In this document: piece after piece, positions 1 through 52,219 of the stretch | Numbering within the stretch: the first letter of the stretch is position 1 | Layout of the letters: each line of letters begins with the position of its first letter | Source: Candidatus Limnocylindrales bacterium | GTDB taxonomy: Bacteria; Chloroflexota; Limnocylindria; Limnocylindrales; CSP1-4 | Reading direction: 5' to 3' | Length of the DNA stretch: 64,000 nt | Assembly (NCBI GenBank): GCA_038214375.1 | Contig: JBBQRX010000007.1 | Span: 15,717-79,716, forward strand | Program-made: the position numbers and the translations under genes | The notes under the pieces: generated by a model | The model's input: only the letters and a program-made list of their open reading frames with translations | Told to the model about the DNA's origin: nothing | Databases searched by the model: none

Positions 1-948
1 TCGGGTGGCTCGTCGCTCATCTCCGCGGCCATGCAGGCACTTCCGGTCGGGGTGCCGAAGCTGCTCGTCTCCACCATGGCGTCGGGTGACACGCGGCCGT
101 ATGTCGGGACCGCGGACATCGCGATGATGTACTCGGTGGTGGACATCGCCGGGATCAACGGCATCTCGGAGAAGATCCTGTCCAACGCGGCCGCCGGGAT
201 CGCCGGCATGGCCCTCGCGTCCGCGTCGTTCACGTCAGGGATCGCGGCGAAGCCCCTGATCGGCGCGACGATGTTCGGGGTGACAACACCCTGCGTGACC
301 GCCGCCCGCGAGCTTCTCGAGGAGCGCGGATACGAGGTCCTGGTCTTCCATGCCACCGGCTCCGGCGGCCGTTCGATGGAGGCCCTCATGAAGGCGGGCT
401 TCATCACCGGCTCGCTGGACATCACGACGACCGAGCTCGCGGACGAGCTCGTGGGCGGCGTCCTGTCCGCCGGCCCCGACCGACTGGAGATGGCCGGCTC
501 CCTCGGCATCCCGCAGGTGGTCTCGCTGGGTGCCCTCGACATGGTCAACTTCGGGCCGAAGGAGACGGTTCCCGCGAAGTTCGCGGACCGCAATCTGTAT
601 GTCCACAACGCGACGGTGACGCTGATGCGCACGACCGAGGAGGAGTGCGCCGAGCTCGGCCGGACGATCGCCCGGAAGCTCAATGCCGCGACCGGTCCGC
701 TGACCGTGTTCATCCCGCTCGGCGGGGTCTCGATGATCGATGTGCCGGGCGCCCCGTTCTTCGATGCCGCGGCCGACGCAGCGCTGATCCGCGAGCTGAA
801 GGCCGGTCTCCGGCCCGACGTCGAGGTGGTCGAGATGGCCGCCTCGATCAACGACCCGGCATTCTCGCGCGCGATGGCCGAGCGCATGGATGCGCTCTAC
901 CAGGCCTGGTCCGCACCGAAGCTGGTCACCACAGGAGGACGCGCATGA
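1..948 (+). CDS. UPF0261 family protein (Tm-1-like N-terminal ATP-binding domain homolog); 5' end truncated by window edge
   Basis: ORF 31..948 is in frame from base 1; product is Gly/Ala-rich with a UPF0261-like sequence ([37 protein letters not shown]); stop overlaps the ATG of the next gene (946). Confidence 0.8.
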
Positions 949-1784
949 ACGGGCAGGTAGCGCTGGCGCGGCTGCGCCGAACGATCGCCGAGGGTGGCGT
1001 GATCATGGGCGCGGGCGCCGGGACGGGCCTCTCGGCGAAGTGCGCCGAGGCCGGCGGAGCCGACCTGATCATCATCTACAACTCGGGCCGCTACCGGATG
1101 GCCGGTCGTGGCTCGCTCGCAGGCTGCATGCCCTATGGCGACGCGAACGCGATCGTCGTGGAGATGGCCGGCGAAGTGCTCCCGATCGTGCGCGAGACGC
1201 CGGTCCTGGCCGGGGTCTGCGGAACGGATCCGTTCCGCCTGATGCCGGTCTTCCTCGAGGAGATCAAGCGGATCGGCTTCTCCGGGGTCCAGAACTTCCC
1301 GACGGTCGGGCTGTGCGACGGCCAGTTCCGCCAGAACCTCGAGGAGACCGGGATGGGCTTCGGGCTCGAGGTGGAGATGATCCGGGCGGCCCACGAGGCC
1401 GGTCTCCTCTGCACGCCCTACGTCTTCGACACGGACCAGGCCCGGGCCATGGCCGAGGCCGGCGCCGACGTCGTCGTCGCCCACATGGGCCTGACCACCA
1501 AAGGGCAGATCGGCGCCACCACGGCCCTGACCCTCGAGGCCGCGGCGGTCCGGGTCCAGGAGATCCGCAACGCGGCCGTCGCGATCAAGCCCGACATCAT
1601 CGTGCTCTGCCACGGCGGCCCGATCGCGGAGCCCGACGATGCGCAGTACGTCATCGACCACACGACGGGCGTCGCCGGCTTCTTCGGCGCGTCGAGCATG
1701 GAGCGGCTTCCGACGGAGGTGGCGATCACGGAGAACATGAAGCGCTTCAAGCGGATCACCCGACCGATGGCGGTCGCCGGCTGA
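946..1784 (+). CDS. phosphoenolpyruvate hydrolase-like TIM-barrel protein (Tm-1-like C-terminal domain homolog)
   Basis: ATG at 946 overlaps the upstream stop (ATGA-style coupling); product [60 protein letters not shown]... is typical of the PEP-hydrolase-like fold that partners UPF0261. Confidence 0.8.
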
Positions 1785-1832
1785 CGAGGTCGCCCGGGGC
1801 GGCGACAGACCCCGCAGGAGGAGTCGAACACA

Positions 1833-3605
1833 GTGGCACTCAAGGAAGAAGTCCTGGGCCAGTTCCTCGGGGACGAGAAGTTCCCGGTGACGTGGACGTC
1901 GGACACCGAGAAGCTGCTCTTCTGGGTCTACGACGACCTGCATTGCCCGCACCCGCTGAGCCCGATGTACGAGGACATCGGCGGCTGGTGGCTGTCGTGT
2001 GACCACATGTTCCGCCGATTCGGCACGCCGTTCGCGACGGACTGGATCTACAAGAACGTCAACGGCTACCTGTACACGGCGGCAATCCCGGCCGAGGCCG
2101 GCCTGAAGGTCGACACGCAGGAGTACAACTACTCGACCAGCCCGGTCGTGCCGGAGGATCCCGACTACGCGGCGAAGATCGGGACGTACCTCGGCGCCGT
2201 CCTGCCGACCTACGGCCTCGAGTTCGTGGACTGGTGGCGCGACCGCCTGGTCCCCGAGATGGACCGCAACTTCGCGTACCTCGAGGGGATGCTCGACAAG
2301 CAGGATGAGCTGAACCTCATGCAGCTTGCCTGCCTCTTCGAGGACGCGATCGACGTCCACGATCGCCACTGGAAGATCCACTGGATGCTCAACTTCGCCC
2401 AACTGTCCGCGACGCTCAACCTGCGGGCAGTCATGGAGAAGACGCACGGCGCAATCAACGAGCAGCTCCTGGGGCGCCTCCAGAACTCCGCGAAGGACCG
2501 CAACTGGGATTCGATCGAAGCACTCTGGAAGATGAAGGAGGAGGCGAAGTCCGACCCGGATCTCGCCGCCATCTTCAAGGCCGATACGGCCGGCGAGATC
2601 ATCGTTGCGCTCAAGGCGAGCGAGCGCGGACGGCGCTTCATCGAGGAGCGCGTCGCACCCTACCAGAAGGAGTACGGCTGGCACGCCGTCTGGAGCCACG
2701 AGTTCATCTTCCCGAACGTGGTCGAAGTCATGGAGCCGGTCATCGAGCTCGTCCGCGGCTACATCGAGACCAACTACGACTACCCGAAGACGATCGCCGT
2801 CCTCGCCGCCGACATCAAGGCCGCGGCGACCGAGATCCTCAAAGGCCTCGAGGGCGAGGCGCTCGAGGAGATGCGGGCGGCCAACGAGATCAACCTGCGG
2901 ATGGCCCCGCTCACGCCGGACCACCACTTCTACATCGACCAGGGCGCCAACGCCCACGTCCGCCAGGTCCTCCTCGCGATCGGCCGCAAGCTCGTCGCGA
3001 CGGGCGCACTCGACGCACCCGACGACGTCGTCTACTTCCGGTACAACGAGCTGCGCGTCTTCATGGGCAACCCGGCCGGCATGGATGGCCGGGCGATCGT
3101 GGCGACGGCAAAGGCCGCCCGCGAGAAGGCCTACACGTTCCGGCCGAAGGAATGGGTCGGGACCGTCACGGCGACACAGCTGGCGTTCCCGTACCTGAAC
3201 CTCTGGGGCTTCCCGGACAAGTTCTATCGCAAGGAGTCCACCGTCGCCGGTCAGATCAACGGGATCGGCGGCTCTCCGGGCGTCGTCGAAGGAATTGCTC
3301 GGGTCGTCCTGCACGAGGACCAGTTCGACGACGTCCGCGCGGGCGACATCCTCGTCTGCCAGATGACGAACCCGGCCTGGGTCGTCCTCTTCACCAAGAT
3401 CGTCGGTCTCGTGACCGACGCGGGCGGGACCGTCTCCCACCCGGCCGTCCTCTCCCGCGAGTTCGGCATCCCGGCGGTCGTCGGGACGTCCGTGGCCACC
3501 GAGCAGATCAAGAACGGCGACCGAGTCCGCATCAACGGCACCACGGGCCTCGTCGAGATCCTGAGCACGGCGCCAGCCCGCACGCTCGTCGGCGTTGGGT
3601 CCTGA
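1833..3605 (+). CDS. PEP-utilizing enzyme family protein, phenylphosphate synthase subunit A-like (C-terminal phosphohistidine swivel domain)
   Basis: GTG start at 1833; N-terminal motif LFWVYDDLHCPHPLSP resembles the FWxxDxLHxPxP motif of PpsA/PEP-synthase-like enzymes (from memory); C-terminal mobile domain ...MTNPAWVVLFTKIVGLVTDAGGTVSHPAVLSREFGIPAVVG with catalytic His. Confidence 0.8.
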   Translation: MALKEEVLGQFLGDEKFPVTWTSDTEKLLFWVYDDLHCPHPLSPMYEDIGGWWLSCDHMFRRFGTPFATDWIYKNVNGYLYTAAIPAEAGLKVDTQEYNYSTSPVVPEDPDYAAKIGTYLGAVLPTYGLEFVDWWRDRLVPEMDRNFAYLEGMLDKQDELNLMQLACLFEDAIDVHDRHWKIHWMLNFAQLSATLNLRAVMEKTHGAINEQLLGRLQNSAKDRNWDSIEALWKMKEEAKSDPDLAAIFKADTAGEIIVALKASERGRRFIEERVAPYQKEYGWHAVWSHEFIFPNVVEVMEPVIELVRGYIETNYDYPKTIAVLAADIKAAATEILKGLEGEALEEMRAANEINLRMAPLTPDHHFYIDQGANAHVRQVLLAIGRKLVATGALDAPDDVVYFRYNELRVFMGNPAGMDGRAIVATAKAAREKAYTFRPKEWVGTVTATQLAFPYLNLWGFPDKFYRKESTVAGQINGIGGSPGVVEGIARVVLHEDQFDDVRAGDILVCQMTNPAWVVLFTKIVGLVTDAGGTVSHPAVLSREFGIPAVVGTSVATEQIKNGDRVRINGTTGLVEILSTAPARTLVGVGS

Positions 3606-3614
3606 CCCGGCCAC

Positions 3615-4391
3615 ATGTCCCACGGCGCCGCGATCTCGCGCAGCGTCCTGAGCGATCAGGTCAAGGATCGTCTGCTCCGGGCGATCCTTGACGGTCGCTA
3701 CCCGCCGGGCGCCCGGATCGTCGAGACCCGGGTGGCCCGGGAGCTCGGAACGAGCCAGGCGCCCGTCCGGGAGGCGTTGCGCGACCTCGAGGCGCTCGGG
3801 GTCGTGGAATCCACCGCCTTCCGGGGAGCCCGCGTCCGCCGCCCGTCGGCGGACGAGCTCCTCGAAGGCTTCACCATCCGGGCCGAGCTCGAGTCGCTCG
3901 GCGCGCGCCTGGCGATCGACCATCTGACCGACGAGGACCTGTGCGTCCTTGCCGGGTATGTCGACGAGATGCGACGGGCGGCCGATGACGGGGACCTCCA
4001 CGCGGAGGCCACTGCCGACGCCGCCTTCCACGGCCGGATCGTCGAGCTCGCCGGGAACGCCACCCTGGAGCGGGTCTGGAGGACGCTCGAGCCCTTCTCC
4101 CGCACCTACATCACGATGGTCGTCCCGGGGGTCGACCGGCGTCGCATCGCGGAGCTGCACACCCCGGTCCTCGCCGCACTTCGCCTCCGGGATCCGATCG
4201 CGGTAGACGCGGTCATCCACGAGCATTTCGCCGAGACCGCCGCGATGCTGGCCCGCCTGTGGTCGACCGATGGCTCGGCGGCGCGAGACGGCTCGGCGGC
4301 GACCAGCAGCCCCCCGACGAGCGACGATCCCCGGCTGGGAACGCGTGCTGGGCAGCCGATCCCCGCAACGACCCACGAAAGGACGAGATGA
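3615..4391 (+). CDS. GntR family transcriptional regulator (FadR/FCD subfamily)
   Basis: N-terminal wHTH (RIVETRVARELGTSQAPVREALRDLEALGVV) and C-terminal FCD-like helical domain; same strand as flanking catabolic genes. Confidence 0.85.
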   Translation: MSHGAAISRSVLSDQVKDRLLRAILDGRYPPGARIVETRVARELGTSQAPVREALRDLEALGVVESTAFRGARVRRPSADELLEGFTIRAELESLGARLAIDHLTDEDLCVLAGYVDEMRRAADDGDLHAEATADAAFHGRIVELAGNATLERVWRTLEPFSRTYITMVVPGVDRRRIAELHTPVLAALRLRDPIAVDAVIHEHFAETAAMLARLWSTDGSAARDGSAATSSPPTSDDPRLGTRAGQPIPATTHERTR

Positions 4392-5275
4392 GCGACCAGC
4401 TGCGACTGTCGGAGGAGATGTCGGCCGGCGCCGCCCGCCTGCGGGTGGACGTGTACGGCGGCGAGCCGCGCGAGCACGTCCTCGACGACCTCACCTTCCT
4501 CAACTACCGGCTGGCCGACGTCCGCATCTCGCCGGAGGCGACCCTGCCCGGGCCCGACATCATCTGGCAGCAGGACGGCGAGAAGGCGATCCGGTACGAC
4601 GGCCGGGTGATGCACTTCACGGGCCCGTGGCCGGCGGGGCCCATCCAGAAGGTCGTGGTCGCCATGCTCGCGCTCCGGATGGAGGCAGTCGGGCTGCACC
4701 CCTCCCACAGCGCCGCCGTGCACTACCGCGGCAGGACGCTGCTCTTCCTCGGCGGCGAGTCCAACCACGGCAAGAGCATGGGACTCATCGAGGCCGGAGC
4801 TCGTGGCGCGCTCCAGGTCGCGTCCGAGACCACGATCATCGACGAGGACGGCAGAGCCGCAGCCGGCTCCGTGGACACGTTCCTCGTGAAGCGCACCGAA
4901 GGGACGGAGCGGTCCGACAAGGCCGCGCCGAACAAGGGCGTGGAGAAGTTCTGGGGAGCCATGCCGTCCTGGGGCATGTACGAGGGCACGCCGAACATCG
5001 ACCTCGTGATCGTCCCGGCGATCGATGGCAACTTCGACCCGGCCACCAACGAGCTCATCCCGTTCGAGCGCGAGTTCCAGTTCCTGCACTCCCTGCAGAA
5101 CTACTTCCTCACCAACGAGCTGCTGGCCCCCGGCCACGTGATGCCGATGGTGGACAACGACGCCCTCCGCGCGAAGCGGGCGGATTTCGTGAGCCGCTTC
5201 TGTGAGCGTCCCTTCTACTTCATCCGGGCAGCCACCCCGCAGGTGCTCCTGGACGAAGTCGACGAAATCCTGTAG
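4388..5275 (+). CDS. HPr kinase-like P-loop protein (hypothetical)
   Basis: ATG 4388 overlaps GntR stop (ATGA); motif HYRGRTLLFLGGESNHGKSMGLIEAGARGALQVASETTIIDEDG matches the HprK C-terminal kinase-domain pattern (G-x-S-x-x-GKS ... DD/DE). Confidence 0.6.
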   Translation: MSDQLRLSEEMSAGAARLRVDVYGGEPREHVLDDLTFLNYRLADVRISPEATLPGPDIIWQQDGEKAIRYDGRVMHFTGPWPAGPIQKVVVAMLALRMEAVGLHPSHSAAVHYRGRTLLFLGGESNHGKSMGLIEAGARGALQVASETTIIDEDGRAAAGSVDTFLVKRTEGTERSDKAAPNKGVEKFWGAMPSWGMYEGTPNIDLVIVPAIDGNFDPATNELIPFEREFQFLHSLQNYFLTNELLAPGHVMPMVDNDALRAKRADFVSRFCERPFYFIRAATPQVLLDEVDEIL

Positions 5276-5292
5276 GCAGAGGCGCCGGGATC

Positions 5293-6153
5293 ATGCACAC
5301 GTTCTCCTACGCACGGCCGGAGGCGCTGGCCGAGGCGGAGGCCATCCTCGCGACACACGGGCCGGATGCCCGCGTCCTTGCCGGGGGCACCGATCTCGTC
5401 ATCCGGCTGCGCGATGGCACGGCCCGGCCGGGCATCGTGGTCGACATCAAGCGGATCCCCGAGCTGCGTCCCTCGATCCGGGAGGAGGCCGGCGTCCTCG
5501 TGATCAGCGCCGGAACGGTCATGACCGACATCGCTGCCGACGAGCGCGTGCGCCGCTGGTTCCCGGCTTTGGCGGAGGGGGCGGCGGTGGTCGGATCCGT
5601 CCAGATCAGGAACCGGGCCACGCTTGCTGGCAACGTGTGCAACGCCTCGCCCGCCGCCGACACGGCCCCCGCGCTCCTCGTGTACGGCGCCCGGGTGGTC
5701 GCCCAGGGGCAGGGCGGGACCCGACGCATCCCGATCGACGCGTTCTTCGTGCGGTCCGGCGTCACGACGCTCGCCCGCGGTGAGCTCGTCACGGCGATCG
5801 AGCTGAGGCTTCCGGCCGGCCCGATGGGCGCGGTCCACGTCCGGCGGACCCGCCGGCGCGGGCACGACCTCGCCTCGGTGACACTCTGCTGCGGCGTGGA
5901 CGGGTCCGGCGTCACGCGGCTTGCGTACGGCAGCGTTGGGCCGCGGCCCGTGCTTTTCGTCGATGAGAGCGGCGTGCTCGCCGACCCGGCCGCCCCGGAC
6001 GAGGCCAGGGCTCCCATCTTCGAGCGGATGTTCGCCGACGCCAGCCCGTCCCCGCGCTCCCTGCGGGCGAGCCCCGAATACCGCCTGGCAATGCTCCGCG
6101 TCCTGGGGACGCGGGCGCTGCGGACCGCGATCGAACGGCTGGCCCTCGCATGA
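5293..6153 (+). CDS. xanthine dehydrogenase family FAD-binding subunit (CoxM/CutM-like medium subunit)
   Basis: FAD-binding molybdopterin-dehydrogenase motifs (AGGTDLV..., IRNRATLAGNVCNASPAAD); precedes the 2Fe-2S and Mo subunits. Confidence 0.9.
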   Translation: MHTFSYARPEALAEAEAILATHGPDARVLAGGTDLVIRLRDGTARPGIVVDIKRIPELRPSIREEAGVLVISAGTVMTDIAADERVRRWFPALAEGAAVVGSVQIRNRATLAGNVCNASPAADTAPALLVYGARVVAQGQGGTRRIPIDAFFVRSGVTTLARGELVTAIELRLPAGPMGAVHVRRTRRRGHDLASVTLCCGVDGSGVTRLAYGSVGPRPVLFVDESGVLADPAAPDEARAPIFERMFADASPSPRSLRASPEYRLAMLRVLGTRALRTAIERLALA

Positions 6154-6635
6154 GCACCCGGGTCGAGCCGATCGCGATCGAGATGACGGTCAACGGGCGG
6201 TTACGGGCGCTCGAGGTGGCCCCCCACCACACGCTGCTCGACATGCTGCGCGACGACCTGGGACTGACCGGCGCGAAGGAGTGCTGCCTGGTCGGCGAGT
6301 GCGGGGCGTGCACGGTGATCGTCGACGGGCGCACGGTCGACTCCTGCCTGGTGCTCGCCGTCGAGGCCGATGGCGCGGCGATCACGACCGTCGAGGGCCT
6401 CGCGGCGGACGGCGTTCTGAGCCCGCTCCAGCAGGCATTCCTCGACAGGGGAGCCGTGCAGTGTGGCTTCTGCATCCCCGGTCAGCTCGTCGCCGCCCAG
6501 GCGCTCCTCGCGGGCAACCCGCACCCATCCGTGGCGGAGATCCAGGAGGGCCTGGCGGGCAACCTGTGCCGCTGCGGCTGCTACGGGCAGATCACCGACG
6601 CGGTCCTCGCGACCGCCGAGGCGGACGTGCGATGA
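6150..6635 (+). CDS. (2Fe-2S)-binding small subunit of xanthine dehydrogenase family enzyme
   Basis: Two Cys clusters (CCLVGECGACTV and CGFCIPGQ ... CRCGCY); ATG 6150 overlaps upstream stop. Confidence 0.9.
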   Translation: MSTRVEPIAIEMTVNGRLRALEVAPHHTLLDMLRDDLGLTGAKECCLVGECGACTVIVDGRTVDSCLVLAVEADGAAITTVEGLAADGVLSPLQQAFLDRGAVQCGFCIPGQLVAAQALLAGNPHPSVAEIQEGLAGNLCRCGCYGQITDAVLATAEADVR

Positions 6636-8878
6636 GCACGCATCGGATCGGCGACTCTCCCAACCGCGTCGGCGGAGTCGGCCGGGTGACCGGCAGCCAG
6701 CAGTACGCGGCGGACATCCGGCTTGCGGACGTCCTCGAGGCCAGGCTCGTCACGCTCGACTGCGCGCGGGCCCGGATCATCTCGATCGATACGATGGCCG
6801 CCGAGCTGGTCCCGGGCGTGCGCCTCGTCATGACTGCAGCCGACCTGCCGCAGCCGGTGCCGCGCTTCGGTCCGCAGTTTGCGGATCGCCCGGTCATCGC
6901 GGTCGGCGAGACGAAGTACCACGGCGAGCCGGTCGCGATCGTCGCCGCCGACTCGAAGGATGCGGCGGAGGAGGCCGCGGGTCTCGTCCGGGTCGAGTAC
7001 GAGGAGCTGCCCGCGGTCTTCACGCTGGCGGCGGCGCTCGACCCGGCCGCCCCGCTGGTCCAGGACCCGGCGCTTCGCCGCAACGACCGGCTCGCATCCA
7101 CGAACGTCCTCCGCGAGCACCCCATCGGCTGGGGCGACGTGGACGCCGCGACGGCAGACGTTGTCGTCGAGAACACGTACACCTTCCCGATGGTCACCCA
7201 TTTCGCGATCGAGCCGCACACATTCATGGCCGCGCCCGACGGCGACGGGATCGCCGTCTGGAGCACGATCCAGCACCCCAACTGGCTCCAGAAGGTGATC
7301 GCGAACATCCTCGGGCTCCCCCTTTCGAAGGTGCGCGTCCTCGCGCCGGATCCCGGGGGTGGGTTTGGCGGCAAGCAGCACGCCAAGCTCGAGCCGCTCG
7401 TCGCGTTCGCGGCCCTGCGGGCCGGGCGCCCCGTGCGTCTCGTCCTGACCCTCGAGCAGACGTTCCAGGCGGTGCGCCGGGCGTCGTGCGAGGTCCGCGT
7501 CCGGACCGGGGTCAACCGCGACGGCGGGCTGGTCTTCGAGGACATCGAGGCCGACTACCTCATCGGCGCCTACGCGGACATCGCGGACCGCGTCGTCGGC
7601 AAGGGCAGCTACCCGGCCGCCGGCCCGTACAACGTTCCGGCCGTTCGGATCATGGCCCGCAGCGTGCTGTCCCACACGGTGCCGTCCACCGCCTTCCGCG
7701 GCTTCGGCAACCCGCAGGTCAACTGGGCAGTGGAGTCGAACCTCGACGATGCGGCGCGCGCGATCGGGATGGATCGCCTCGCGATCCGCCTGCGCAATCT
7801 CGCGAGAAAGGGCGACGCGTTCATCCCGTTCGACACGCCGGCCGACGGCGACTGGGAGCAGACCGTCCGACGGGCGGCGGAGCTCATCGGCTGGGATGCG
7901 CCGCTGCCGCCCGGGCACGGGCGGGGGATCGCCATCGGGATCAAGTCCGGCCCCACCACGGGCCTCTCGTATTCGACCGTCCGGCTCCTCGGCGACGGGA
8001 GCGTGATCGTCTTCGCCGGCACGTCGGACATGGGCCAGGGCGCCCGGACGGTCTTCGCGCAGATCGCGGCCCAGGAGCTCGGCGCGCCGCTCGACTGGGT
8101 CACGGTCGTCATGGGCGACACGGCGATCGTCCCGTACGACCAGCAGACATCGGCGAGCCGCTCCACGGTCCTGATGGGCAACTCGGTGCTGCAGGCGTGC
8201 CGCTCGATCCAGGCGCAGCTGCGCGCGATGGCCGCCCGTCTTCACGGCCTCGACGCGTCGCAGGTGAGCGTGGACAGCGGAGTCGTCCAACTCCCCGGCC
8301 GCGAGCTCTCCGTGCTCGAGGTGCTCGAGCCGGGCCTCGGCCCTCTCGGTGGCGAGCTGACCGGCAACGGCGAGGTCCGCAAGGATGCCGAGCCCGATCA
8401 CCCGCTCAGCGGCAGCGCGGCGTTCTTCGAGTTCAACTGCACGGCCGTCGAGGCGGCGGTGGACGAGGAGACGGGCGACATCGTCATCGCGAAGCACGTG
8501 ACGGTCTCCGACGTGGGGAAGGCTCTCAACCCGCTCCAGGTGGCGATGCAGGACGAGGGTGCCGCCATCCAGGGCCTGGGCCATACGCTCATGGAGCAGT
8601 ACGTCTTCGACGAGACGGGCCGAATCCGCAATCTGGGCGCGATCGACTACCGGATCCCGACCAGCATGGACCTGCCGCTCGAGCTGCGCAGCGCCATCGT
8701 CGAGAACGAGGACGGCCCCGGGCCGTACGGCTCGAAGGGGATGAGCGAGGGCGCGCTGCTGTGCGTGGCGTCCGCCGTCGGGGCGGCCGTCCGGGATGCC
8801 ACCGGGGTCGCGATCCGGGACCTGCCGCTGACGCCGGAACGGGTCTGGCGCGCCCTCCGCGATCGGCCGACGCCATGA
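6632..8878 (+). CDS. xanthine dehydrogenase family molybdopterin-binding large subunit
   Basis: ATG 6632 overlaps small-subunit stop; GGGFGGK and AFRGFGNPQ motifs typical of XDH/aldehyde-oxidoreductase Mo subunits; no form-I CODH AYXCSFR loop; the N-terminal 5921..6631 part of the long ORF is antisense-style artefact. Confidence 0.9.
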   Translation: MSTHRIGDSPNRVGGVGRVTGSQQYAADIRLADVLEARLVTLDCARARIISIDTMAAELVPGVRLVMTAADLPQPVPRFGPQFADRPVIAVGETKYHGEPVAIVAADSKDAAEEAAGLVRVEYEELPAVFTLAAALDPAAPLVQDPALRRNDRLASTNVLREHPIGWGDVDAATADVVVENTYTFPMVTHFAIEPHTFMAAPDGDGIAVWSTIQHPNWLQKVIANILGLPLSKVRVLAPDPGGGFGGKQHAKLEPLVAFAALRAGRPVRLVLTLEQTFQAVRRASCEVRVRTGVNRDGGLVFEDIEADYLIGAYADIADRVVGKGSYPAAGPYNVPAVRIMARSVLSHTVPSTAFRGFGNPQVNWAVESNLDDAARAIGMDRLAIRLRNLARKGDAFIPFDTPADGDWEQTVRRAAELIGWDAPLPPGHGRGIAIGIKSGPTTGLSYSTVRLLGDGSVIVFAGTSDMGQGARTVFAQIAAQELGAPLDWVTVVMGDTAIVPYDQQTSASRSTVLMGNSVLQACRSIQAQLRAMAARLHGLDASQVSVDSGVVQLPGRELSVLEVLEPGLGPLGGELTGNGEVRKDAEPDHPLSGSAAFFEFNCTAVEAAVDEETGDIVIAKHVTVSDVGKALNPLQVAMQDEGAAIQGLGHTLMEQYVFDETGRIRNLGAIDYRIPTSMDLPLELRSAIVENEDGPGPYGSKGMSEGALLCVASAVGAAVRDATGVAIRDLPLTPERVWRALRDRPTP

Positions 8879-9789
8879 GCCACGAGGAGGGCGCGGGAAT
8901 GGCCAGGCCGTCCGGGATCGGACCGATCGGCGAGCTGCCGCCCGCACAGGTCGTGAAGGCCGCGAGCCTCGTCCGCGACGGCCGAATGGTCTCGCTCGCG
9001 GCGGTGCGCTACCCCGGCATGCCCCTCTTCCCCGGGCACCCGCCGTTCCAGGTGCTCAACTACCGGACCCCGCGCGGGATTCGCGTGACCGGCGCGAAAC
9101 CGTGGGGGCCGGTCAACGACGCGGGCCTCGGCTACATGGCCGAGTACGTGATGGCGACCTCGCACTCCGGCGCGCACATGGACGCGCTCGCTCACATGAC
9201 CGTGGGCGACGACATGCACTGGTACGGCGGCGGGAACGCGGACGAGCACCTGACGGATTTCGGCCCGACGCACCTCGACGCGTCGCAGATGCCCCCGTTC
9301 TTCACCCGGGGCGTCCTGCTGGACGTTGCCGGGCACCGCGGGGTCGACTGCCTCCCCGAGGGCTCGCCGATCAATGCCGACGAGATGGAAGCGGTCTGCC
9401 TCGCGCAGGGCGTGTCCGTGGGGCCGTGGGACGTCGTCCTGGTCCGGACCGGCTACATGGGCCTCTGGCCCGACGTCGAGCGGATGGCCGCCCACAAGAC
9501 CGCCGGGCCGGATCTCTCGGCGGCCCGCTGGCTGCTGGAGCGCGGCGTCGTCGCGACCGGCAGCGACACGGAGACCTACGAGGTCCAGCCGACTCCCGAC
9601 CCGGGACCTACCGGCAACCCCCAGCCGGTCCACACGCTGCTGCTCATCCAGAACGCCATCTACCTCATGGAGAGCCTCGACCTCGAGGAGCTGGCGCGCG
9701 TGCGCGCCTACGAGTTCCTCTTCGTCGCCCTCCCCGTCAAGATCCGCGGCGCCACCGGGTCGATGGTCGATCCCGTCGCCGTCCTCTGA
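8875..9789 (+). CDS. cyclase family protein (kynurenine formamidase-like metal-dependent hydrolase)
   Basis: ATG 8875 overlaps large-subunit stop (ATGA); HSGAHMDALAHM and GSDTETYE motifs of the putative cyclase fold. Confidence 0.85.
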   Translation: MSHEEGAGMARPSGIGPIGELPPAQVVKAASLVRDGRMVSLAAVRYPGMPLFPGHPPFQVLNYRTPRGIRVTGAKPWGPVNDAGLGYMAEYVMATSHSGAHMDALAHMTVGDDMHWYGGGNADEHLTDFGPTHLDASQMPPFFTRGVLLDVAGHRGVDCLPEGSPINADEMEAVCLAQGVSVGPWDVVLVRTGYMGLWPDVERMAAHKTAGPDLSAARWLLERGVVATGSDTETYEVQPTPDPGPTGNPQPVHTLLLIQNAIYLMESLDLEELARVRAYEFLFVALPVKIRGATGSMVDPVAVL

Positions 9790-9815
9790 AGGAGCTCGTC
9801 AGCGTGCCCGCGACC

Positions 9816-10859
9816 ATGGAGGCGCTCGTCGTTCTCGAGCCGAACCGGCTCGAGATCCAGGAAGTTCCCGTCCCGACGGCCGGCCCGAACGAGGTTCTGG
9901 CCCGCGTGCGCGCCGTCTCCATCTGCGGGACCGATGCGCACATCCTGCGCGGCGACTACCCGGGCTTCTGGCCCCCCGCGTTCCCGTTCATCCCGGGCCA
10001 CGAGTGGGCCGGCGAGATCGCCGCGCTCGGGCCCGGCGCGGAGCTGTTCGGATGGGCGGTCGGCGACCGCGTCGCGGGCACCTCGCACGACGCGTGCGGC
10101 GTCTGCCAGAAGTGCGTCGAGGGCCGCTACAACCTGTGCGAGAACTATGGGCGGCCGGGACTCCACAAGCAGTACGGCCACAGCGTCCAGGGCGCCGACG
10201 CGACGTACGTCGTGCAGGGCGTCAAGACGATCTTCCCGCTCCCCGACGCGATCTCGTTCGACGAGGGCGCCGTCATCGACCCGGCCTCCATCGCCCTCCA
10301 CGTCGCGAATCGCGGCAATATCGCTCCCGGCGACACGGTCGCGATCACGGGCGCCGGCGCCATCGGGCTGCTCGGCGGGGACGCGGCACGCATCCGGGGA
10401 GCCGGTCGCGTCATCCTCGTCGGCCGCGGAGGTCGCCTTCTGAAGGCGGCGGCGATGGGCTTCGAGACCGTGGACACGTCCGCCGGCGATCCGGTCCCCA
10501 TAGTGCGCGAGATGACCGGGGGCCTCGGCGTCGACGTCGTCCTCGAGTGCGCCGGTGTTCCCGTCGCCGTGCAGTGGGCGCTCGGCATGCTTCGGCGCGG
10601 CGGCCGGTGTGCCGCCGTCGGGATCCCGACCGAGGGCGTCGAGATCGCCATGCAGCGGCTGGTCCTCGATGAGCTGGAGCTGGTCGGGTCCCGTGCCTCC
10701 GCGGGCGAGATGCGGCGCGTGATGCCGCTCGTCGAGCAGGGCCGGATGCGGGTTCGCGAGGTCATGACCCATCGCTTCGCGCTCGCCGACTATGCGCAGG
10801 CGATCGCCACCTTCAACGACCCGACGAGCGGCGCGATCAAGATCATCGTCGCGCCGTGA
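9816..10859 (+). CDS. zinc-dependent alcohol dehydrogenase (MDR family)
   Basis: ICGTDAHIL, GHEWAGEI, CGVCQKCVEGRYNLC (structural Zn) and GAGAIGLL Rossmann motifs; AAGGAG RBS at 9789-9794; alternative GTG start at 9804. Confidence 0.85.
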   Translation: MEALVVLEPNRLEIQEVPVPTAGPNEVLARVRAVSICGTDAHILRGDYPGFWPPAFPFIPGHEWAGEIAALGPGAELFGWAVGDRVAGTSHDACGVCQKCVEGRYNLCENYGRPGLHKQYGHSVQGADATYVVQGVKTIFPLPDAISFDEGAVIDPASIALHVANRGNIAPGDTVAITGAGAIGLLGGDAARIRGAGRVILVGRGGRLLKAAAMGFETVDTSAGDPVPIVREMTGGLGVDVVLECAGVPVAVQWALGMLRRGGRCAAVGIPTEGVEIAMQRLVLDELELVGSRASAGEMRRVMPLVEQGRMRVREVMTHRFALADYAQAIATFNDPTSGAIKIIVAP

Positions 10860-10914
10860 CCTGCGCCCGTGCCGCGCGGAGCGGCCGGTCGGCTCGGCGC
10901 CCCAGGAGAGCCCC

Positions 10915-13089
10915 GTGACCTACGTCTTCGACTTCGACCACCGCCACGACCTGCCGTTCGACGAGGTCAAGCGACTCGTGGGCGGCAAGGCCGCGAGCCT
11001 CGCGGTGATGGCGGTCGACCTCGGCCTGCCGGTTCCACCGGCCTTCACGATCACGACGACGGCCTGCAACGAGTACCTGGCGAACGGCTGGCCGGACGGG
11101 CTGGACGCCGATCTTCGCGAGCACATGGCGCGGATCGAGCGGCTCGTCGGCCGGCGCTTCGGCGGCCCGGAGGATCCGCTCCTGGTCAGCGTCCGGTCCG
11201 GCGCGCCGGTCTCGATGCCGGGCATGATGGACACGATCCTCAACCTGGGGCTGAACGGCGGGACGACCGGCGGGCTCGCGGCCGCGTCGGGCAGCGAGGC
11301 ATTCGCGGCGAACTGCCGCGCGAGGTTCGAGGCGACGTTCCGCGACATCGTGGGCGTCGACGACGTGCCCGAGGATCCGTGGGCCCAGCTGCGGGCAGCG
11401 ATCGAGGCCGTCTTCCGCTCCTGGAACAGCGACCGGGCCCGCACGTACCGCGAGCGGGAGGGGATCGCCGACGACCTGGGCACGGCGGTGACCGTGCAGG
11501 CGATGGTCTTCGGCAACCGCAGCGTCGACTCCGGGACGGGCGTCCTGTTCACGCGGAACCCGGCCACCGGCGAACCCGCCCTCTACGGCGACGTCCTGTT
11601 CAACGCCCAGGGCGAGGACGTCGTGGCCGGGACGCACCGGACCGAGCCGATCGCCATCCTCGACGAGCGCATGCCCGCTGTCGGGCGCGAGCTCCACGAG
11701 TACGCGCTCCGTCTCGAGCGCCACCACCGGGACCTGTGTGATATCGAGTTCACGATCGAGCACGGCAGGCTCTGGATGCTGCAGTGCCGTGTCGGCAAGC
11801 GAAGCCCGCAGGCCGCGCTCCGGATCGCGGTCGACATGGCCCGCGACGCGGACTTCCCCCTGGAGCGGGTGGAGGCCGTGCGCAGGGTCGCCGGTCTCCT
11901 TGCGAGCCCACCGATGATCGCGACCGCGCGGGCCGGCAACGAACCCGTCCTCGCGACGGGCCTGCCGGCGTCGCCGGGAATCGCCTGCGGCGAGATCGCG
12001 ACCACGCCCGATGCCGCGATCGCCGTCGCCGAGGCCGGCCGGCGGGCGATCCTCGTCCGTGCCGAGACGTCCCCGGACGACGTCCATGGGATGGCCCGGT
12101 CGGCCGGGATCCTCACCTCCTGCGGCGGCCTTGCGAGCCACGCCGCGGTCGTTGCGCGCGGCTGGGGAATCCCCGCGGTGGTGGGTGCAGCCGCGGTCCA
12201 CGTCTCGGGCGACGGCGTCACGATCGGCGGGCGAACGTTCCGCGCGGGCGACACGATCTCGATCGACGGGGCTACCGGCGAGATCTTCGCCGGGGCGATC
12301 GCCGGAGCACGGGTGGTCGTCCCCGAGGTGGCGACGCTGCTGGCGTGGGCGGCCGAGCTCGGGATCCCGATCGGGGACGCCGATGCGCCCGCCGGTGCCG
12401 CCCCGGGCGCGGCTGCCCCGGGCGCGGCTGCCACGGCCGGACCGCCGGCGTCATCCGGCGGCGCGGCGCCGGCAACCGCAGATGATGTCCTGCGCGCGCT
12501 GATCGTGAAGGGCTACGCACTGCCCGAGAGCCTGGCGACGGCGCTCTCATCGACCGCCGCGGAGATGGCGGCTGCGCTGGACTGCCTCGTCGCCGACGGC
12601 CTCGCCGAGAAGGCCGCCGGCTCGTTTCGGCTCACGGTCGGCGGGAAGGCCGCCGGACGGGAGCGGATCGCGGCCGACACCGAGCGCTGGGGAGTCGCCA
12701 ATGCGGCGGCCGCGCTCGATGCGTTCGTGATCCTCGACACGCGCATGAAGCAGACCGCCACTGCGTGGCAGATGCGCGAGGTGGACGGCACCGCGACGTT
12801 CAACGATCACGCGGATGCGGCCTACGACGCGAAGGTGCTCCGAGACCTCGACTCGCTGCACGCGGACGCGTCCGCGTGGCTCCGCCCGTTGGTGCCGCAC
12901 CTCCCCCGGCTCGCGTCGTACGTCGAGCGCCTGGACCGCGCAGCGGCCGCGGCTCGGGGCGGGGACGGCCGCTTCGTCGCGTCACCCCGTGTCGACAGCT
13001 ACCACGGCGCCTGGTTCGAGCTGCACGAGGACTTGATCCTGCTCGCGGGCCGCAGCCGGGCCGACGAGGTCGCCGCCGGGCGCGCCTGA
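10915..13089 (+). CDS. PPDK-like dikinase: PEP/pyruvate-binding ATP-grasp N-domain plus phosphohistidine swivel domain, with a novel C-terminal region instead of the catalytic TIM barrel
   Basis: GTG 10915 preceded by AGGAGAG; the N-terminal 340 aa align by eye to the pyruvate phosphate dikinase N-terminus (GGKAASLAVM, RSGAPVSMPGMMDTILNLGLN, TRNPATGE); central TSCGGLASHAAVVARGWGIPAVVG His domain; residues after about 500 are Ala/Pro linker then an unrelated about 230 aa region. Confidence 0.8.
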   Translation: MTYVFDFDHRHDLPFDEVKRLVGGKAASLAVMAVDLGLPVPPAFTITTTACNEYLANGWPDGLDADLREHMARIERLVGRRFGGPEDPLLVSVRSGAPVSMPGMMDTILNLGLNGGTTGGLAAASGSEAFAANCRARFEATFRDIVGVDDVPEDPWAQLRAAIEAVFRSWNSDRARTYREREGIADDLGTAVTVQAMVFGNRSVDSGTGVLFTRNPATGEPALYGDVLFNAQGEDVVAGTHRTEPIAILDERMPAVGRELHEYALRLERHHRDLCDIEFTIEHGRLWMLQCRVGKRSPQAALRIAVDMARDADFPLERVEAVRRVAGLLASPPMIATARAGNEPVLATGLPASPGIACGEIATTPDAAIAVAEAGRRAILVRAETSPDDVHGMARSAGILTSCGGLASHAAVVARGWGIPAVVGAAAVHVSGDGVTIGGRTFRAGDTISIDGATGEIFAGAIAGARVVVPEVATLLAWAAELGIPIGDADAPAGAAPGAAAPGAAATAGPPASSGGAAPATADDVLRALIVKGYALPESLATALSSTAAEMAAALDCLVADGLAEKAAGSFRLTVGGKAAGRERIAADTERWGVANAAAALDAFVILDTRMKQTATAWQMREVDGTATFNDHADAAYDAKVLRDLDSLHADASAWLRPLVPHLPRLASYVERLDRAAAAARGGDGRFVASPRVDSYHGAWFELHEDLILLAGRSRADEVAAGRA

Positions 13090-13131: not shown

Positions 13132-14028
13132 TCAGCGCGGCGGGACGGCCCGGGCCGGGAACGTCGTCGTGGTCGGCGCGGTCAGCCTGTCGTAGAGCGT
13201 CCCGGCGTTGAGCGACTGGATGTACCCCATCATGTAGTCTTGCCCGACGTCGACGGGATATCGCTCGGCGAAGGTAACGCCCGCCACGGTCTCCTCGCGC
13301 GACCAGCCCTTCGCGATCGCGACCGCCACGGCCGTCTTCCATTCGAGGAGCATGGCGCGCTGCGTGTACAGGTACTCCTTCGTCGTCACCGGGCCATGGC
13401 CGGGAATGACGCGGTCGACGTCGAGGGCGCGAATCCGGTCGAGCGCCGCCACCCACTGGTCCACGTCGGAGGTCATCAGCCACGTGGCGCAATCGGAGAA
13501 GATCGTGTCGCCGGTGAAGACCGCGCGCTCCTCGGGAACGAAGACCGCGACCTGGCCCGGCGTGTGCCCCGGCGTGTGCAGCAGGTGGAAGGTGTGGTCG
13601 CCGAGCTTGAGCGTCAGGTCGCCCGTGAAGACCAGCGTGCCCTTGTTCGGATCGGCGTAATACGTGTCCCGATCGGGCGTGATCGCAGCGCCGTCCGGGT
13701 CGTCGGTCGGGATCGCCTCGAGCGCGTAGGCGTACGGGTCGAGCTCGGGAGTGACCACCATGAAGTTGTCGTAGACACCCTGGTGCTCCACGACGGTGCC
13801 GGCGCCCTTGAACCAGTAGTTGCCGAAGATGTGGTCGACGTGGTGCTCGGTGTTGATCAGGTAGCGGATCGGCCCGTGCGCCTCGGCGAGCCTCCGCATC
13901 TCCACGGCCTTCGTCGGGAGCTGCGGGGTGTCGATCACCACGACACCGGCCGAGGTGGTCACGAAGCTCGGGTTGCAGCCGCGCAGCTTCGTCGTCGTGT
14001 AGACGTTCGGGGTGACGTTCTCCATCAT
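13132..14028 (-). CDS. MBL-fold metallo-hydrolase
   Basis: HxHxDH motif (NTEHHVDHIFGN), downstream HTPGHTPG and GHG; GAGGAG RBS upstream of ATG. Confidence 0.85.
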   Translation of the reverse strand: MMENVTPNVYTTTKLRGCNPSFVTTSAGVVVIDTPQLPTKAVEMRRLAEAHGPIRYLINTEHHVDHIFGNYWFKGAGTVVEHQGVYDNFMVVTPELDPYAYALEAIPTDDPDGAAITPDRDTYYADPNKGTLVFTGDLTLKLGDHTFHLLHTPGHTPGQVAVFVPEERAVFTGDTIFSDCATWLMTSDVDQWVAALDRIRALDVDRVIPGHGPVTTKEYLYTQRAMLLEWKTAVAVAIAKGWSREETVAGVTFAERYPVDVGQDYMMGYIQSLNAGTLYDRLTAPTTTTFPARAVPPR

Positions 14029-14082
14029 CGGGGTCTGGCTCCTCAGGCGAGCGAATGCTGGACGGCGGGGGCCGTGTTTCGG

Positions 14083-14868
14083 CTACTGGGTCGCGGTGAG
14101 CCCGCCGTCGATCCCGAGGACCTGGCCGGTCACGAACGCCGAGGCATCCGAGCAGAAGAAGATGGCCGGTCCGACGAGGTCGCCCGTTCCGCCGACGCGG
14201 CCCAGCGGGATCCGGGCGACGATTCCGGCCTTGAACGCCGGGTCGTCGAGGAGCATCGCCACCTGCGGCGTGTCGACGAAGGTCGGGGAGATTGCGTTCA
14301 CGTTGATGCCGTGCTTCGCCCATTCGGTCGCCCACTGGCGCGTGAGCGAGCTGATGGCGCCCTTCGCGGCGACGTACGCGGAGTAGCCGGCGTTGATCCC
14401 GAGGCTGGCGCGCACCGAGGAGATGTTGAGGACCCGGCCGCCGTGGCCGCCGGCGATCATCGCCCGGACCGCGGCCTGCGTGGCGAGCAGCGTGCTCCGG
14501 ACGTTGAGCTCGTAGATCCAGTCCCATGCGTCCCGCGGATACTCCTGGGCTTCGAAGAGGACCTTGCCGGCGCCGCCACCCACGCAGTTGACGATGATGT
14601 CCAGGCGGCCGAACGTCGCGACGGTCGCCGCGACCATCCGCTCGCATTCGGATTCCACGAGGACGTCGGCACCGATGGCGAGACACTCGCCGCCGGCGGC
14701 GCGGATGCGTTCCGCAGATGCGTCGGCGAGCTCCTGGGTCCGGTCCACGACCGTCACCCGGGCGCCAGCGCCCGCGAGCGCGGCGGCCATGGCGCTGCCG
14801 ATTGCACCCCCGCCTCCCGGCACGATGGCGACGCGCCCTTCGAGGCTGAAGGCGTCGAGATAGGTCAT
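14083..14868 (-). CDS. SDR family oxidoreductase
   Basis: Gly-rich dinucleotide motif near the N-terminus (AIVPGGGGAIGSAMA) and YxxxK (YVAAK); AAGGAG RBS. Confidence 0.9.
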   Translation of the reverse strand: MTYLDAFSLEGRVAIVPGGGGAIGSAMAAALAGAGARVTVVDRTQELADASAERIRAAGGECLAIGADVLVESECERMVAATVATFGRLDIIVNCVGGGAGKVLFEAQEYPRDAWDWIYELNVRSTLLATQAAVRAMIAGGHGGRVLNISSVRASLGINAGYSAYVAAKGAISSLTRQWATEWAKHGINVNAISPTFVDTPQVAMLLDDPAFKAGIVARIPLGRVGGTGDLVGPAIFFCSDASAFVTGQVLGIDGGLTATQ

Positions 14869-15050
14869 GGTTCTCCTTCCGGCCGGGCCGTGCCGTCTGC
14901 GCGCGTCCGGCCGTGTCGCGGTTCATCACCGGCCGAGGAGCGGGATCGTGGCGCGATCGACGACTATGATCGATTATCGAGCATATGGGCCGATCTCGCA
15001 CGACGTCCCGCGAGGCGACCGCACGCGTAGCGGCAGGCGGGAATTGCCGC

Positions 15051-17537: not shown

Positions 17538-17721
17538 GAGGAGGCGGCACATCTCCGGGTCGGAGAGGCGTCCTGCCTCCCACGTGGTCTCACCACCAGT
17601 TCGGAGATGCTACCAGCCTGGATTGGGAGCCGGCCCGTGCACGGCCGGCTCCGCGCATGAGCGCCCGTTCGCGGAGGGGATCGCTGTGCCGGAGCATGCG
17701 GCCCGACCGTACACTCGGGCG

Positions 17722-19466: not shown

Positions 19467-19577
19467 AGCGCGGTCGAGATGCGGGAGTTCCCACGGGACC
19501 CTGCGATGGGGCAGAATCCGCGCCACGCACGACCGCTCACCGAGCCCGGCCCAGACCGCCTGAGGAGACCCGTCCCG

Positions 19578-21056: not shown

Positions 21057-21059
21057 GCA

Positions 21060-52143: not shown

Positions 52144-52219
52144 GGGGGAGTAGCTCAACGGTCAGAGCACCCGCCTTATACGCGGTTCGTTGGAGGTTCG
52201 AATCCTCCCTCCCCTACCA
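52144..52219 (+). tRNA. tRNA, anticodon UAU by manual fold (putative tRNA-Ile decoding AUA); CCA encoded
   Basis: Manual cloverleaf: acceptor GGGGGAG/CTCCCCT (G1-U72 wobble), D-arm GCTC-AACGGTCA-GAGC, anticodon arm CCCGC-CTTATAC-GCGGT (27-43 mismatch), V-loop TCGTT, T-arm GGAGG-TTCGAAT-CCTCC, discriminator A, CCA. Confidence 0.8.

Follow-up and report, generated by a model that had tools for sequence, protein, structure and literature searches.

Molybdenum (Mo) hydroxylases are thought to need just a substrate, water, and an electron acceptor. The genetic dependence of such an enzyme on dikinase-like proteins has precedent in the literature on 3-hydroxypyridine (3hpd) catabolism by Ensifer adhaerens HP1, where the four-component hydroxylase HpdA (HpdA1-4) turns 3-hydroxypyridine into 2,5-dihydroxypyridine only together with orf9, a “pyruvate phosphate dikinase,” and orf10, a “PEP-utilizing protein mobile subunit” (PEP, phosphoenolpyruvate); knocking out either gene abolishes growth on 3-hydroxypyridine (bioRxiv 10.1101/2020.01.08.898148). 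With the hydroxylase genes alone 3-hydroxypyridine was not consumed, and with orf9/orf10 stoichiometric free 2,5-dihydroxypyridine was obtained; in 38 strains, hpdA is accompanied by conserved copies of orf9, orf10, a GntR gene (Orf7), and the unnamed orf8 (bioRxiv 10.1101/2020.01.08.898148). In this work, we analyzed a stretch of 64,000 nucleotides from a Candidatus Limnocylindrales bacterium (Chloroflexota; GenBank assembly GCA_038214375.1, contig JBBQRX010000007.1, forward-strand positions 15,717 to 79,716), referred to as the window, the first 13,089 nucleotides of which carry a gene cluster that likewise combines a Mo hydroxylase with two PEP-utilizing proteins.

The second group of related systems comprises the two-component small-molecule dikinases PpsAB, CreHI, HpeHI, and AcvAB, the two-chain counterparts of the single-chain rifampin phosphotransferase (RPH) (PMC12167813; PMC9618137). 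In these enzymes, the ATP-grasp subunit loads the β-phosphate of ATP onto a swivel histidine, which delivers it to a phenolic hydroxyl (PMC12167813; PMC9618137). Our literature search retrieved no later paper explaining the kinase requirement of HpdA and none on the Thermococcus gene cluster described below.

Genes in the window, which has a G+C content of ~70%, were called from third-position G+C, then from domain content and the listing of open reading frames (ORFs), and domains were assigned by Pfam, NCBIfam, and PDB sequence searches of the window proteins. Frame analysis and the ORF listing place eleven plus-strand genes, g1 to g11, head to tail across positions 1 to 13089, with 4-nt stop/start overlaps at four junctions (g1/g2, g4/g5, g6/g7, and g7/g8) and gaps of 9 to 55 nt at the others. 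This co-directional set had been delineated in a first-pass annotation made from the sequence alone, all of whose protein-family assignments were reproduced by Pfam, NCBIfam, PDB, and fold prediction. The genes are as follows:

<1-948, + strand: g1, Tm-1-like ATP-binding protein (UPF0261; PF06792 + PF23189), with its 5' end beyond the window edge and about 100 aa absent
945-1784, + strand: g2, PEP-hydrolase-like TIM-barrel protein (PF09370, E value 2e-131)
1833-3605, + strand: g3, dikinase H-component with an RPH/HpeH-type substrate-binding region and a C-terminal swivel phosphohistidine domain (PF00391)
3615-4391, + strand: g4, GntR/FCD transcriptional regulator (PF00392 + PF07729)
4388-5275, + strand: g5, 295-aa P-loop protein with a predicted PEPCK/HprK fold (PEPCK, PEP carboxykinase; HprK, HPr kinase)
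5293-6153, + strand: g6, medium subunit of the Mo hydroxylase, binding flavin adenine dinucleotide (FAD) (FAD_binding_5 + CO_deh_flav_C, PF00941 + PF03450)
6150-6635, + strand: g7, small subunit with two [2Fe-2S] clusters and the standard Cys set (PF00111 + PF01799)
6632-8878, + strand: g8, molybdopterin-binding large subunit of the xanthine dehydrogenase (XDH) family (Ald_Xan_dh_C + MoCoBD_1/2; PF01315, PF02738, PF20256)
8899-9789, + strand: g9, cyclase-family metal-dependent amidohydrolase of the kynurenine-formamidase/isatin-hydrolase type (PF04199)
9804-10859, + strand: g10, Zn-dependent medium-chain alcohol dehydrogenase (PF08240 + PF00107)
10915-13089, + strand: g11, short-PPDK-type ATP-grasp and swivel-His protein (PPDK, pyruvate phosphate dikinase; PPDK_N + PEP-utilizers)

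Compared by published description, the locus resembles the 3hpd cluster in having the genes of an XDH-family Mo hydroxylase (g6 to g8) beside PPDK-like (g11), PEP-utilizing (g3), and GntR (g4) genes. The combination had at first not been recognized as belonging to any described pathway, a view that the similar pairing reported from Ensifer corrects (bioRxiv 10.1101/2020.01.08.898148). It differs from the 3hpd cluster in that g11 carries an additional C-terminal domain made of a winged helix-turn-helix (wHTH) and a helical bundle. Moreover, g5 is probably not Orf8, since the g5 family is confined to Chloroflexota, Gaiellaceae, and some archaea. The initial analogy with phenylphosphate synthase proved apt, as g3 and its ATP-grasp partner match PpsAB, CreHI, HpeHI, and AcvAB (PMC12167813): g3 has the HpeH/RPH layout and a T/SxxGGxxxH motif, a separate PPDK_N protein is encoded nearby, and the context is catabolic. 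In contrast to those systems, however, g3 is paired with a short PPDK that itself has a His domain, and not with an ATP-grasp-only subunit of the HpeI type; a Mo hydroxylase takes the downstream place of the carboxylase or P450; and there is no CreD/HpeD-type phosphatase. The pairing thus has precedent in 3hpd and in the two-component dikinases; what is novel is the distinct g3 clade, the short-PPDK partner with its wHTH-bundle tail, the split Tm-1 module, and above all the g5 family with its cross-domain linkage to dikinases and Mo/tungsten (W) pterin enzymes.

The g3 protein is 590 aa long and bears the PEP-utilizers swivel domain (PF00391) at aa 502 to 572. Residues 160 to 578 align with the PRK08296, RedH, PigC, and RPH models of NCBIfam, each below its cutoff, the match to the RPH structures (PDB 5hv1/5fbs) reaches 95 bits, and g3 orthologues match PF27448 (Rph_4th). 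The predicted catalytic residue, His536 (codon at 3438 to 3440), lies in the sequence TDAGGTVSH, which is of the T/SxxGGxxxH type and is kept in all five g3-clade sequences aligned. Together with its relatives, g3 forms a separate clade marked by an SHPA motif after the glycine loop, outside the clade of the characterized phenol kinases HpeH, CreH, and PpsA (~45% pairwise identity).

The N-terminal and central His domains of g11 match Clostridium PPDK with 406 bits and pass the cutoff of NF004531. The predicted His409 is kept (codon at 12139 to 12141), and the residue two before it is Ala, where PPDK has its regulatory Thr. An Ala/Pro linker (12376 to 12477) leads to a C-terminal domain (12478 to 13086) that takes the place of the TIM barrel. 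Structure prediction of this region, proposed in the first-pass annotation, returned for the last 203 residues a MarR/ArsR-type winged helix and a four-helix bundle with a predicted local distance difference test (pLDDT) score of 96. Thus, g11 shares the ATP-grasp and His domains with the short PPDKs (NF004531, PRK05878) but has the TIM barrel replaced. The PEP/pyruvate-binding TIM barrel PF02896 was absent from both g11 and g3 in Pfam and PDB searches, which rules out a bona fide PPDK or PEP synthase, in agreement with the earlier view of the two PEP-utilizing proteins; g3 is instead an RPH/HpeH-type substrate-binding and swivel subunit. In some related genomes, the g11-type C-terminal domain is annotated as a separate ORF of ~200 aa named “MarR.” The g11 tail is also homologous to the C terminus of a 793-aa protein of Rhodococcus opacus plasmid pROB02 (locus L093 of our set, 155 to 2536), which starts with a PEP-utilizers domain and is encoded in a cre-like cluster with a P450, a ferredoxin, and a phosphatase. 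The wHTH-bundle tail is therefore found repeatedly with phosphotransfer proteins of this kind and is no peculiarity of this locus.

Pairs of a short PPDK and a second PEP-utilizers protein also occur on Diaphorobacter, Mycobacterium avium, and Rhodococcus plasmids. On the first two, the genes form a four-gene set near Rieske or P450 oxygenases (Diaphorobacter, L092, 9927 to 14727; M. avium, L097, 9884 to 16139), comprising a short PPDK (ATP-grasp and His), a ~200-aa hypothetical protein, a PEP-utilizers protein with a C-terminal swivel, and a ~300-aa hypothetical protein, one of which is a DUF7065 protein. These ~300-aa hypothetical proteins were considered as relatives of g5 and rejected, with an hhalign probability of 0.1%.

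The g6 to g8 proteins have the features of a three-subunit XDH-family hydroxylase, with FAD, 2×[2Fe-2S], and Mo-pterin subunits, the last of which shows GGGFG (GGGFGGK) at aa 242, FRGFG at aa 355, and the catalytic-Glu motif SEG at aa 705. No NCBIfam equivalog model matches g8 at its cutoff. The description as FRGFG type and not CO dehydrogenase (CODH) was upheld: FRGFG occupies the position of the CoxL Cys loop, and the CODH models score 240 to 292 bits against cutoffs of 950 to 991. A 4-hydroxybenzoyl-coenzyme A (CoA) reductase was likewise rejected, with TIGR03194 scoring 437 against a cutoff of 995 and TIGR03195 matching in two pieces only; g6, with 286 aa and only 3 Cys, lacks the 4Fe-4S insertion of the β subunit of that enzyme. 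In comparison with HcrABC of Thauera aromatica, g8 keeps the hydroxylase motifs, and no CoA ligase or carboxylase genes occur in the cluster. The 4-hydroxybenzoyl-CoA reductase belongs to the anaerobic phenol pathway, which is itself opened by a dikinase of the phenylphosphate synthase type.

The g5 protein has a Walker A motif, GGESNHGKS (4751 to 4777), and a predicted PEPCK/HprK-like fold, in which it aligns over more residues with PEPCK than with HprK. No match was found in Pfam (down to an E value of 10, PF07475 included), NCBIfam, or PDB sequences, and a tblastn search of 72,556 plasmids found none either. At 295 aa, g5 is half the size of PEPCK, and no HPr or phosphotransferase system (PTS) genes lie in its context; lacking both membership in the PF07475 profile and a PTS/HPr setting, it is set apart from HPr kinase/phosphorylase (HprK/P). 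The family is small, with 178 representatives at 50% identity. As judged by these comparisons, g5 represents a new, unannotated accessory protein family. Fusions found in the representative library (FCD-g5, g5-FAD, and g5-FAD-FeS-Mo; FeS, iron-sulfur) reproduce the adjacency of the genes and most likely result from frameshifts or misassembly, and they were not used as Rosetta stones.

Relatives were found in 457 genomes in a scan of one genome per species, and the best 80 loci were analyzed, counting for each gene only those with enough flank. All 80 come from one class, and homologues of g5 are 75 to 93% identical across hundreds of Chloroflexota metagenome-assembled genomes named Limnocylindrales. 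In this set g3 (71/71), g6 (79/79), and g7 (78/78) are always present, and g4 (75/76) and g8 (71/73) nearly so; g11 occurs in 56 of 63 loci, g10 in 54 of 64, and g9 in 58 of 71, with g1 found in 36 of 66 and g2 in 29 of 67. Hence, g3 to g8 form an invariant core, g9 to g11 are usual members (82 to 89%), and the Tm-1 pair is accessory (43 to 55%). The initial proposal of one eleven-gene regulon therefore needs revision, only g3 to g8 being invariant; the Tm-1 pair in some relatives lies downstream or on the other strand. Transketolase and aldehyde dehydrogenase genes located upstream in relatives were not accepted as pathway members, being too lineage-restricted.

The identity of g3 orthologues to the window g3 is bimodal, with 49 loci at 60 to 80%, 18 at 85 to 95%, and none between, and is uncorrelated with g5 identity (r = −0.18; L002 to L081). 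This suggests that two allelic or xenologous versions of g3 circulate among these genomes, and the two perhaps differ in substrate specificity.

Synteny within one class is weak evidence by itself, and distant members of the g5 family were examined too. In Gaiellaceae (Actinomycetota; g5, 54% identity), g3-like, GntR, cyclase, ATP-grasp-only PPDK_N, and g5-like genes lie next to an ABC transporter of the branched-chain type and a divergent operon of FAD, FeS, Mo, and transaldolase-like genes. In a Nitrososphaerales archaeon (g5, 40% identity; 35% G+C), the FeS and Mo subunit genes are separated by an inserted g3-like gene, and a g5-like and a PPDK_N gene are adjacent. In Thermococcus sibiricus and relatives (g5, 39% identity; L099/L100/L103-L105, ~1 to 16 kb), the clusters hold PPDK_N, ThiS-like, cyclase, DUF169, isopropylmalate-synthase-like, g5-like, cupin, UPF0261, and g3-like genes, and a subsurface lineage has HMGL-like, g3-like, g5-like, cupin, cyclase, ThiF, and ThiS genes beside an ABC transporter. 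The megaplasmid of Thermomicrobium roseum (L090) carries a cluster without g5, composed of an ABC transporter, the Tm-1 pair, GntR, cyclase, an ATP-grasp protein, a DUF4202-like protein, the FAD subunit, an FAH-family hydrolase, an ABM monooxygenase, a g3-like protein, and the Mo and FeS subunits; its orthologues of g1, g2, and g3 are 72, 77, and 46% identical, respectively. In the T. roseum, Gaiellaceae, Nitrososphaerales, and Thermococcus-type loci, the partner of g3 is an ATP-grasp-only protein of 273 to 401 aa without His domain or wHTH. A GntR gene beside the module also recurs in Gaiellaceae and T. roseum, and a cyclase-family gene in Gaiellaceae, T. roseum, and the Thermococcus-type and subsurface clusters.

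That the same components are reassembled with varying gene order in both bacteria and archaea argues strongly for functional coupling, and the arrangement, conserved as it is across phyla, is far beyond chance. A lack of conservation in relatives had been named beforehand as an outcome that would speak against a functional unit; the neighborhood is conserved across Chloroflexota classes, Actinomycetota, and Archaea. Since g5 accompanies g3 even in loci with a rearranged gene order, it was placed on the phosphoryl side of the chemistry. In T. roseum, the slot between the ATP-grasp and FAD subunit genes (L090, 9112 to 9729) encodes a 205-aa DUF4202-like protein (33 bits, just under the cutoff), which may be a functional analogue of g5 in that organism.

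The gene content, domain architecture, intact catalytic motifs, and cross-phylum linkage observed here lead us to a tentative reading, to which as a whole we give slightly less than an even chance and to any single detail much less. In it, the cluster would be a catabolic operon whose two-component phosphohistidine dikinase and Mo hydroxylase act on one small molecule, the substrate being phosphorylated first and the phosphate ester then hydroxylated. We infer the order of the steps, their chemical rationale, the role of g5, and the class of the substrate, which is most likely a hydroxylated aromatic or N-heteroaromatic compound. With dikinase chemistry taken from the described two-component enzymes, the PPDK-type ATP-grasp domain of g11 would bind ATP and the β-phosphoryl group would move to swivel His536 of g3, possibly via His409 of g11. 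From there, g3 would pass it to a hydroxyl of the bound substrate (ATP → AMP + Pi + aryl-phosphate). The form hydroxylated by the g6 to g8 enzyme, at a neighboring electron-poor carbon, would then be the phosphate ester rather than the free phenol(ate); an oxyanion is a strong electron donor that would disfavor attack by the Mo-bound hydroxide, and esterification would remove this obstacle. Next, g5 would remove or transfer the phosphoryl group of the product, using nucleotides or pyrophosphate as HprK/P and PEPCK do, or else would control the His domain. Later intermediates would be handled by g9, suited to formamide or lactam hydrolysis, and g10, suited to alcohol/carbonyl redox chemistry, with g4 regulating the operon and the Tm-1-like kinase and TIM barrel of g1/g2 serving as an optional second phosphoryl-handling module. 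A logic of phosphorylating first, then transforming, and then removing the phosphate is used in the 4-cresol, phenol, and acetovanillone pathways.

The first-pass annotation had placed the steps in the opposite order, with the Mo enzyme acting first and the dikinase then phosphorylating or activating its hydroxylated product. On this order, phosphorylation of the new hydroxyl or lactam oxygen would prime a next step such as ring hydrolysis by the cyclase-family enzyme, as in ATP-dependent lactamases. Sequence fixes no step order, dikinases of this family do phosphorylate hydroxyls, and all lineages examined have a cyclase-family amidohydrolase with the module. The Ensifer genetics, however, favor phosphorylation before or at hydroxylation, because the hydroxylase converted nothing when the two kinase genes were missing; its inertness, and the release of free 2,5-dihydroxypyridine once orf9/orf10 are present, would be hard to explain if the kinase acted on the product only. 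We therefore consider phosphorylation of the product to be unlikely.

Several observations weigh against hydroxylation of a phosphorylated aromatic. The Ensifer study saw no phosphorylated intermediate, and its authors did not settle what the kinase-like proteins do (bioRxiv 10.1101/2020.01.08.898148). The SRPBCC subunit (HpdA3) and the maleamate-pathway genes hpdBCDE of the 3hpd cluster are absent here; no SRPBCC, NicX-like, maleamate amidase, or maleate isomerase domain was found among the genes at 1 to 31 kb. Domain searches of the operon revealed no recognizable aryl-phosphate phosphatase (CreD/HpeD/HAD type) or ring-cleavage dioxygenase. The g3 protein shares only ~25% identity with an HpeH-like subunit from a Rhizobium cluster of the hpe/acv type and 25 to 30% with other H subunits, and the nearest solved relative of g8 is the α subunit of 4-hydroxybenzoyl-CoA reductase (1rm6; 331 bits), ahead of quinoline oxidoreductase (234 bits). 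Furthermore, in the Thermococcus-type clusters two tungsten-type aldehyde:ferredoxin oxidoreductases (AORs; 335 to 390 bits to 1aor) and a polyferredoxin replace the XDH-type Mo enzyme, and no pterin enzyme lies within 10 kb of the subsurface cluster; for these two reasons, the dikinase/g5 module is not strictly tied to a heteroaromatic hydroxylase. The aromatic or N-heteroaromatic substrate, assumed from the start, is unproven in view of the W enzyme. Finally, the neighbors of g5 in anaerobes include isopropylmalate-synthase-like and cupin genes, and in two phyla the cluster is linked to a divergent transaldolase-like gene.

Part of this evidence is what a non-aromatic enol-phosphate/aldehyde pathway would predict, in which the pterin enzyme would be an aldehyde oxidoreductase, the dikinase would make an enol-phosphate from a ketone or 2-oxo acid like PEP synthase, and g5, as a mini-PEPCK, would carboxylate it or phosphorylate a nucleotide. 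The replacement by W AOR, the isopropylmalate-synthase-like HMGL protein and cupin beside g5 in anaerobes, and the transaldolase-like gene of two phyla suit it, as do the closer alignment of g5 with PEPCK and the subthreshold matches of g7 and g6 to subunits of archaeal glyceraldehyde dehydrogenase. It is nevertheless improbable, as g3 falls in the RPH/HpeH-type group, whose known substrates are hydroxyls of aromatic or complex molecules, g8 is nearest to aromatic-ring enzymes (4-hydroxybenzoyl-CoA reductase and quinoline oxidoreductase), the sole genetic precedent concerns a hydroxypyridine, and an HMGL-like gene is found in 0 of the 80 Limnocylindria loci.

A regulatory phosphotransfer was also considered, in which no metabolite is phosphorylated and the His~P of g11/g3 and the HprK-like g5 target a protein, be it the Mo enzyme or each other in the manner of PPDK regulatory proteins, or DNA binding by the winged helix of g11. 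Within a PEP-dependent phosphotransfer system, HprK/P works as a protein kinase/phosphorylase, one operon here holds two swivel-His proteins, and g11 has a MarR/ArsR-like winged helix instead of a catalytic domain, with a related wHTH-bundle domain fused to the PEP-utilizers protein of R. opacus. We regard this as highly unlikely, however, given that the ATP-grasp partners of four other lineages have neither His domain nor wHTH, so that neither is essential to the module, that g3 retains the full RPH-type substrate-binding region, and that a dedicated GntR regulator is already encoded. That unrelated operons merely lie side by side, with their conservation reflecting vertical synteny within one lineage, is largely refuted by the cross-phylum comparison and is extremely improbable: the best 80 loci all come from one class, the Tm-1 pair, cyclase, and alcohol dehydrogenase are variable, and g3 identity is bimodal and uncorrelated with that of g5, but g3-type, g5-type, ATP-grasp, and pterin-enzyme genes are brought together again, in other gene orders, in Actinomycetota and two archaeal lineages, a g3-like gene is inserted inside the Mo-enzyme operon in Nitrososphaerales, and UPF0261 is again beside g3-like genes in Thermococcus and T. 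roseum.

A bolder extension of the phosphorylation-first reading, which we put forward only as a speculation with a small chance of being right, is that g5 founds a new mini-PEPCK/HprK-fold family that is the obligate partner of a distinct dikinase clade. Phosphate would then be a traceless activating group for Mo/W pterin oxidoreductases, recovered afterwards to ADP, or to Pi forming PPi, in an ancient system common to aerobic bacteria (XDH-type Mo) and anaerobic archaea (AOR-type W). The kinase dependence of a Mo hydroxylase appears to be no oddity of one Ensifer plasmid, as a related arrangement is fixed in hundreds of Chloroflexota species from soil and freshwater and recurs in Actinomycetota and Archaea. 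Two carriers are cultured, T. roseum (without g5) and T. sibiricus (with g5), which makes the need of a pterin oxidoreductase for an ATP-driven phosphotransferase experimentally testable. If phosphorylation does generally prime electron-rich aromatics for Mo/W enzymes, catabolic pathways would be predicted differently for the uncultured bacteria that abound in soil, and biocatalysis would gain a new strategy.

The accessory pair g1 and g2 corresponds to the two domains of tomato Tm-1 split into two genes with a 4-nt overlap, which makes it Tm-1-like. The g1 protein scores 446 bits with NF002674, above the cutoff, and matches tomato Tm-1 (3wrw; 287 bits) better than the MarK-type structure 9mpy (190 bits), whereas g2 matches PDB 2p10 (Mll9387) with 346 bits; the identities of g1 and g2 covary across loci (r = 0.93). 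MarK, the one characterized UPF0261 member, is an ADP-forming kinase for acetovanillone and related phenols that replaces AcvAB/HpeHI in Novosphingobium (PMC12624787). In contrast to g1, it lacks a PEP-hydrolase-like partner and is encoded in an operon for acetovanillone carboxylase. An ATP-site lysine (Lys16, equivalent to Tm-1 Lys20) is required in MarK (PMC12624787), and the equivalent N terminus of g1 lies outside the window.

The metal motif of g9, HSGAHMDALAH (HxGxHxDxxxH; 9163 to 9195), is intact, and the protein matches PDB 5ibz with 78 bits. The best NCBIfam models for g10 are threonine 3-dehydrogenase and scyllo-inosose 3-dehydrogenase, both below their cutoffs, and two g10 paralogues are present in some related loci. 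The start of g9 is probably 8899 rather than the alternative 8875. That of g11 is most likely the GTG at 10915 and not the ATG at 10792, because a GGAGAG ribosome-binding site precedes it and orthologues begin there; hence, g11 does not overlap g10. The longest g11 ORF does start at ATG 10792, and its 41 additional Arg/Ser/Pro-rich residues (10792 to 10914) overlap the end of g10, so automatic annotation may over-extend g11.

A transaldolase-family gene is divergently transcribed upstream of the cluster in 36 of the 80 Limnocylindria loci (e.g., L003, 6103 to 7350). Its counterpart in Gaiellaceae (L083, 5277 to 6404, − strand), directly after the Mo subunit gene, encodes a protein that is 58% identical to the product of the Limnocylindria gene and scores 120 bits against a transaldolase cutoff of 367. 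The transaldolase-like protein may be a pathway-specific aldolase.

Downstream, two genes are convergent with or follow the operon:

13132-14082, − strand: metallo-beta-lactamase-fold (MBL) hydrolase (PF00753), convergent with the operon
14083-14922, − strand: short-chain dehydrogenase/reductase (SDR; PF13561/PF00106)

The MBL gene lies within 10 kb of 30 of 81 related loci, mostly together with the SDR gene, which adjoins it in 19 of the 81, and both possibly belong with the operon. No riboswitch or RNA leader that could reveal a ligand was detected by Rfam in the window, in two relatives, or in the T. roseum locus; the sole Rfam match in the 64-kb window is one tRNA gene (52144 to 52216). 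Beyond the MBL and SDR genes are the housekeeping genes cinA, terC, purK, icd, and purE. Among these, a DUF5946 gene and the gene of a bacterial-type isocitrate dehydrogenase come between purK and purE (17515 to 21581), an unusual interruption of purEK.

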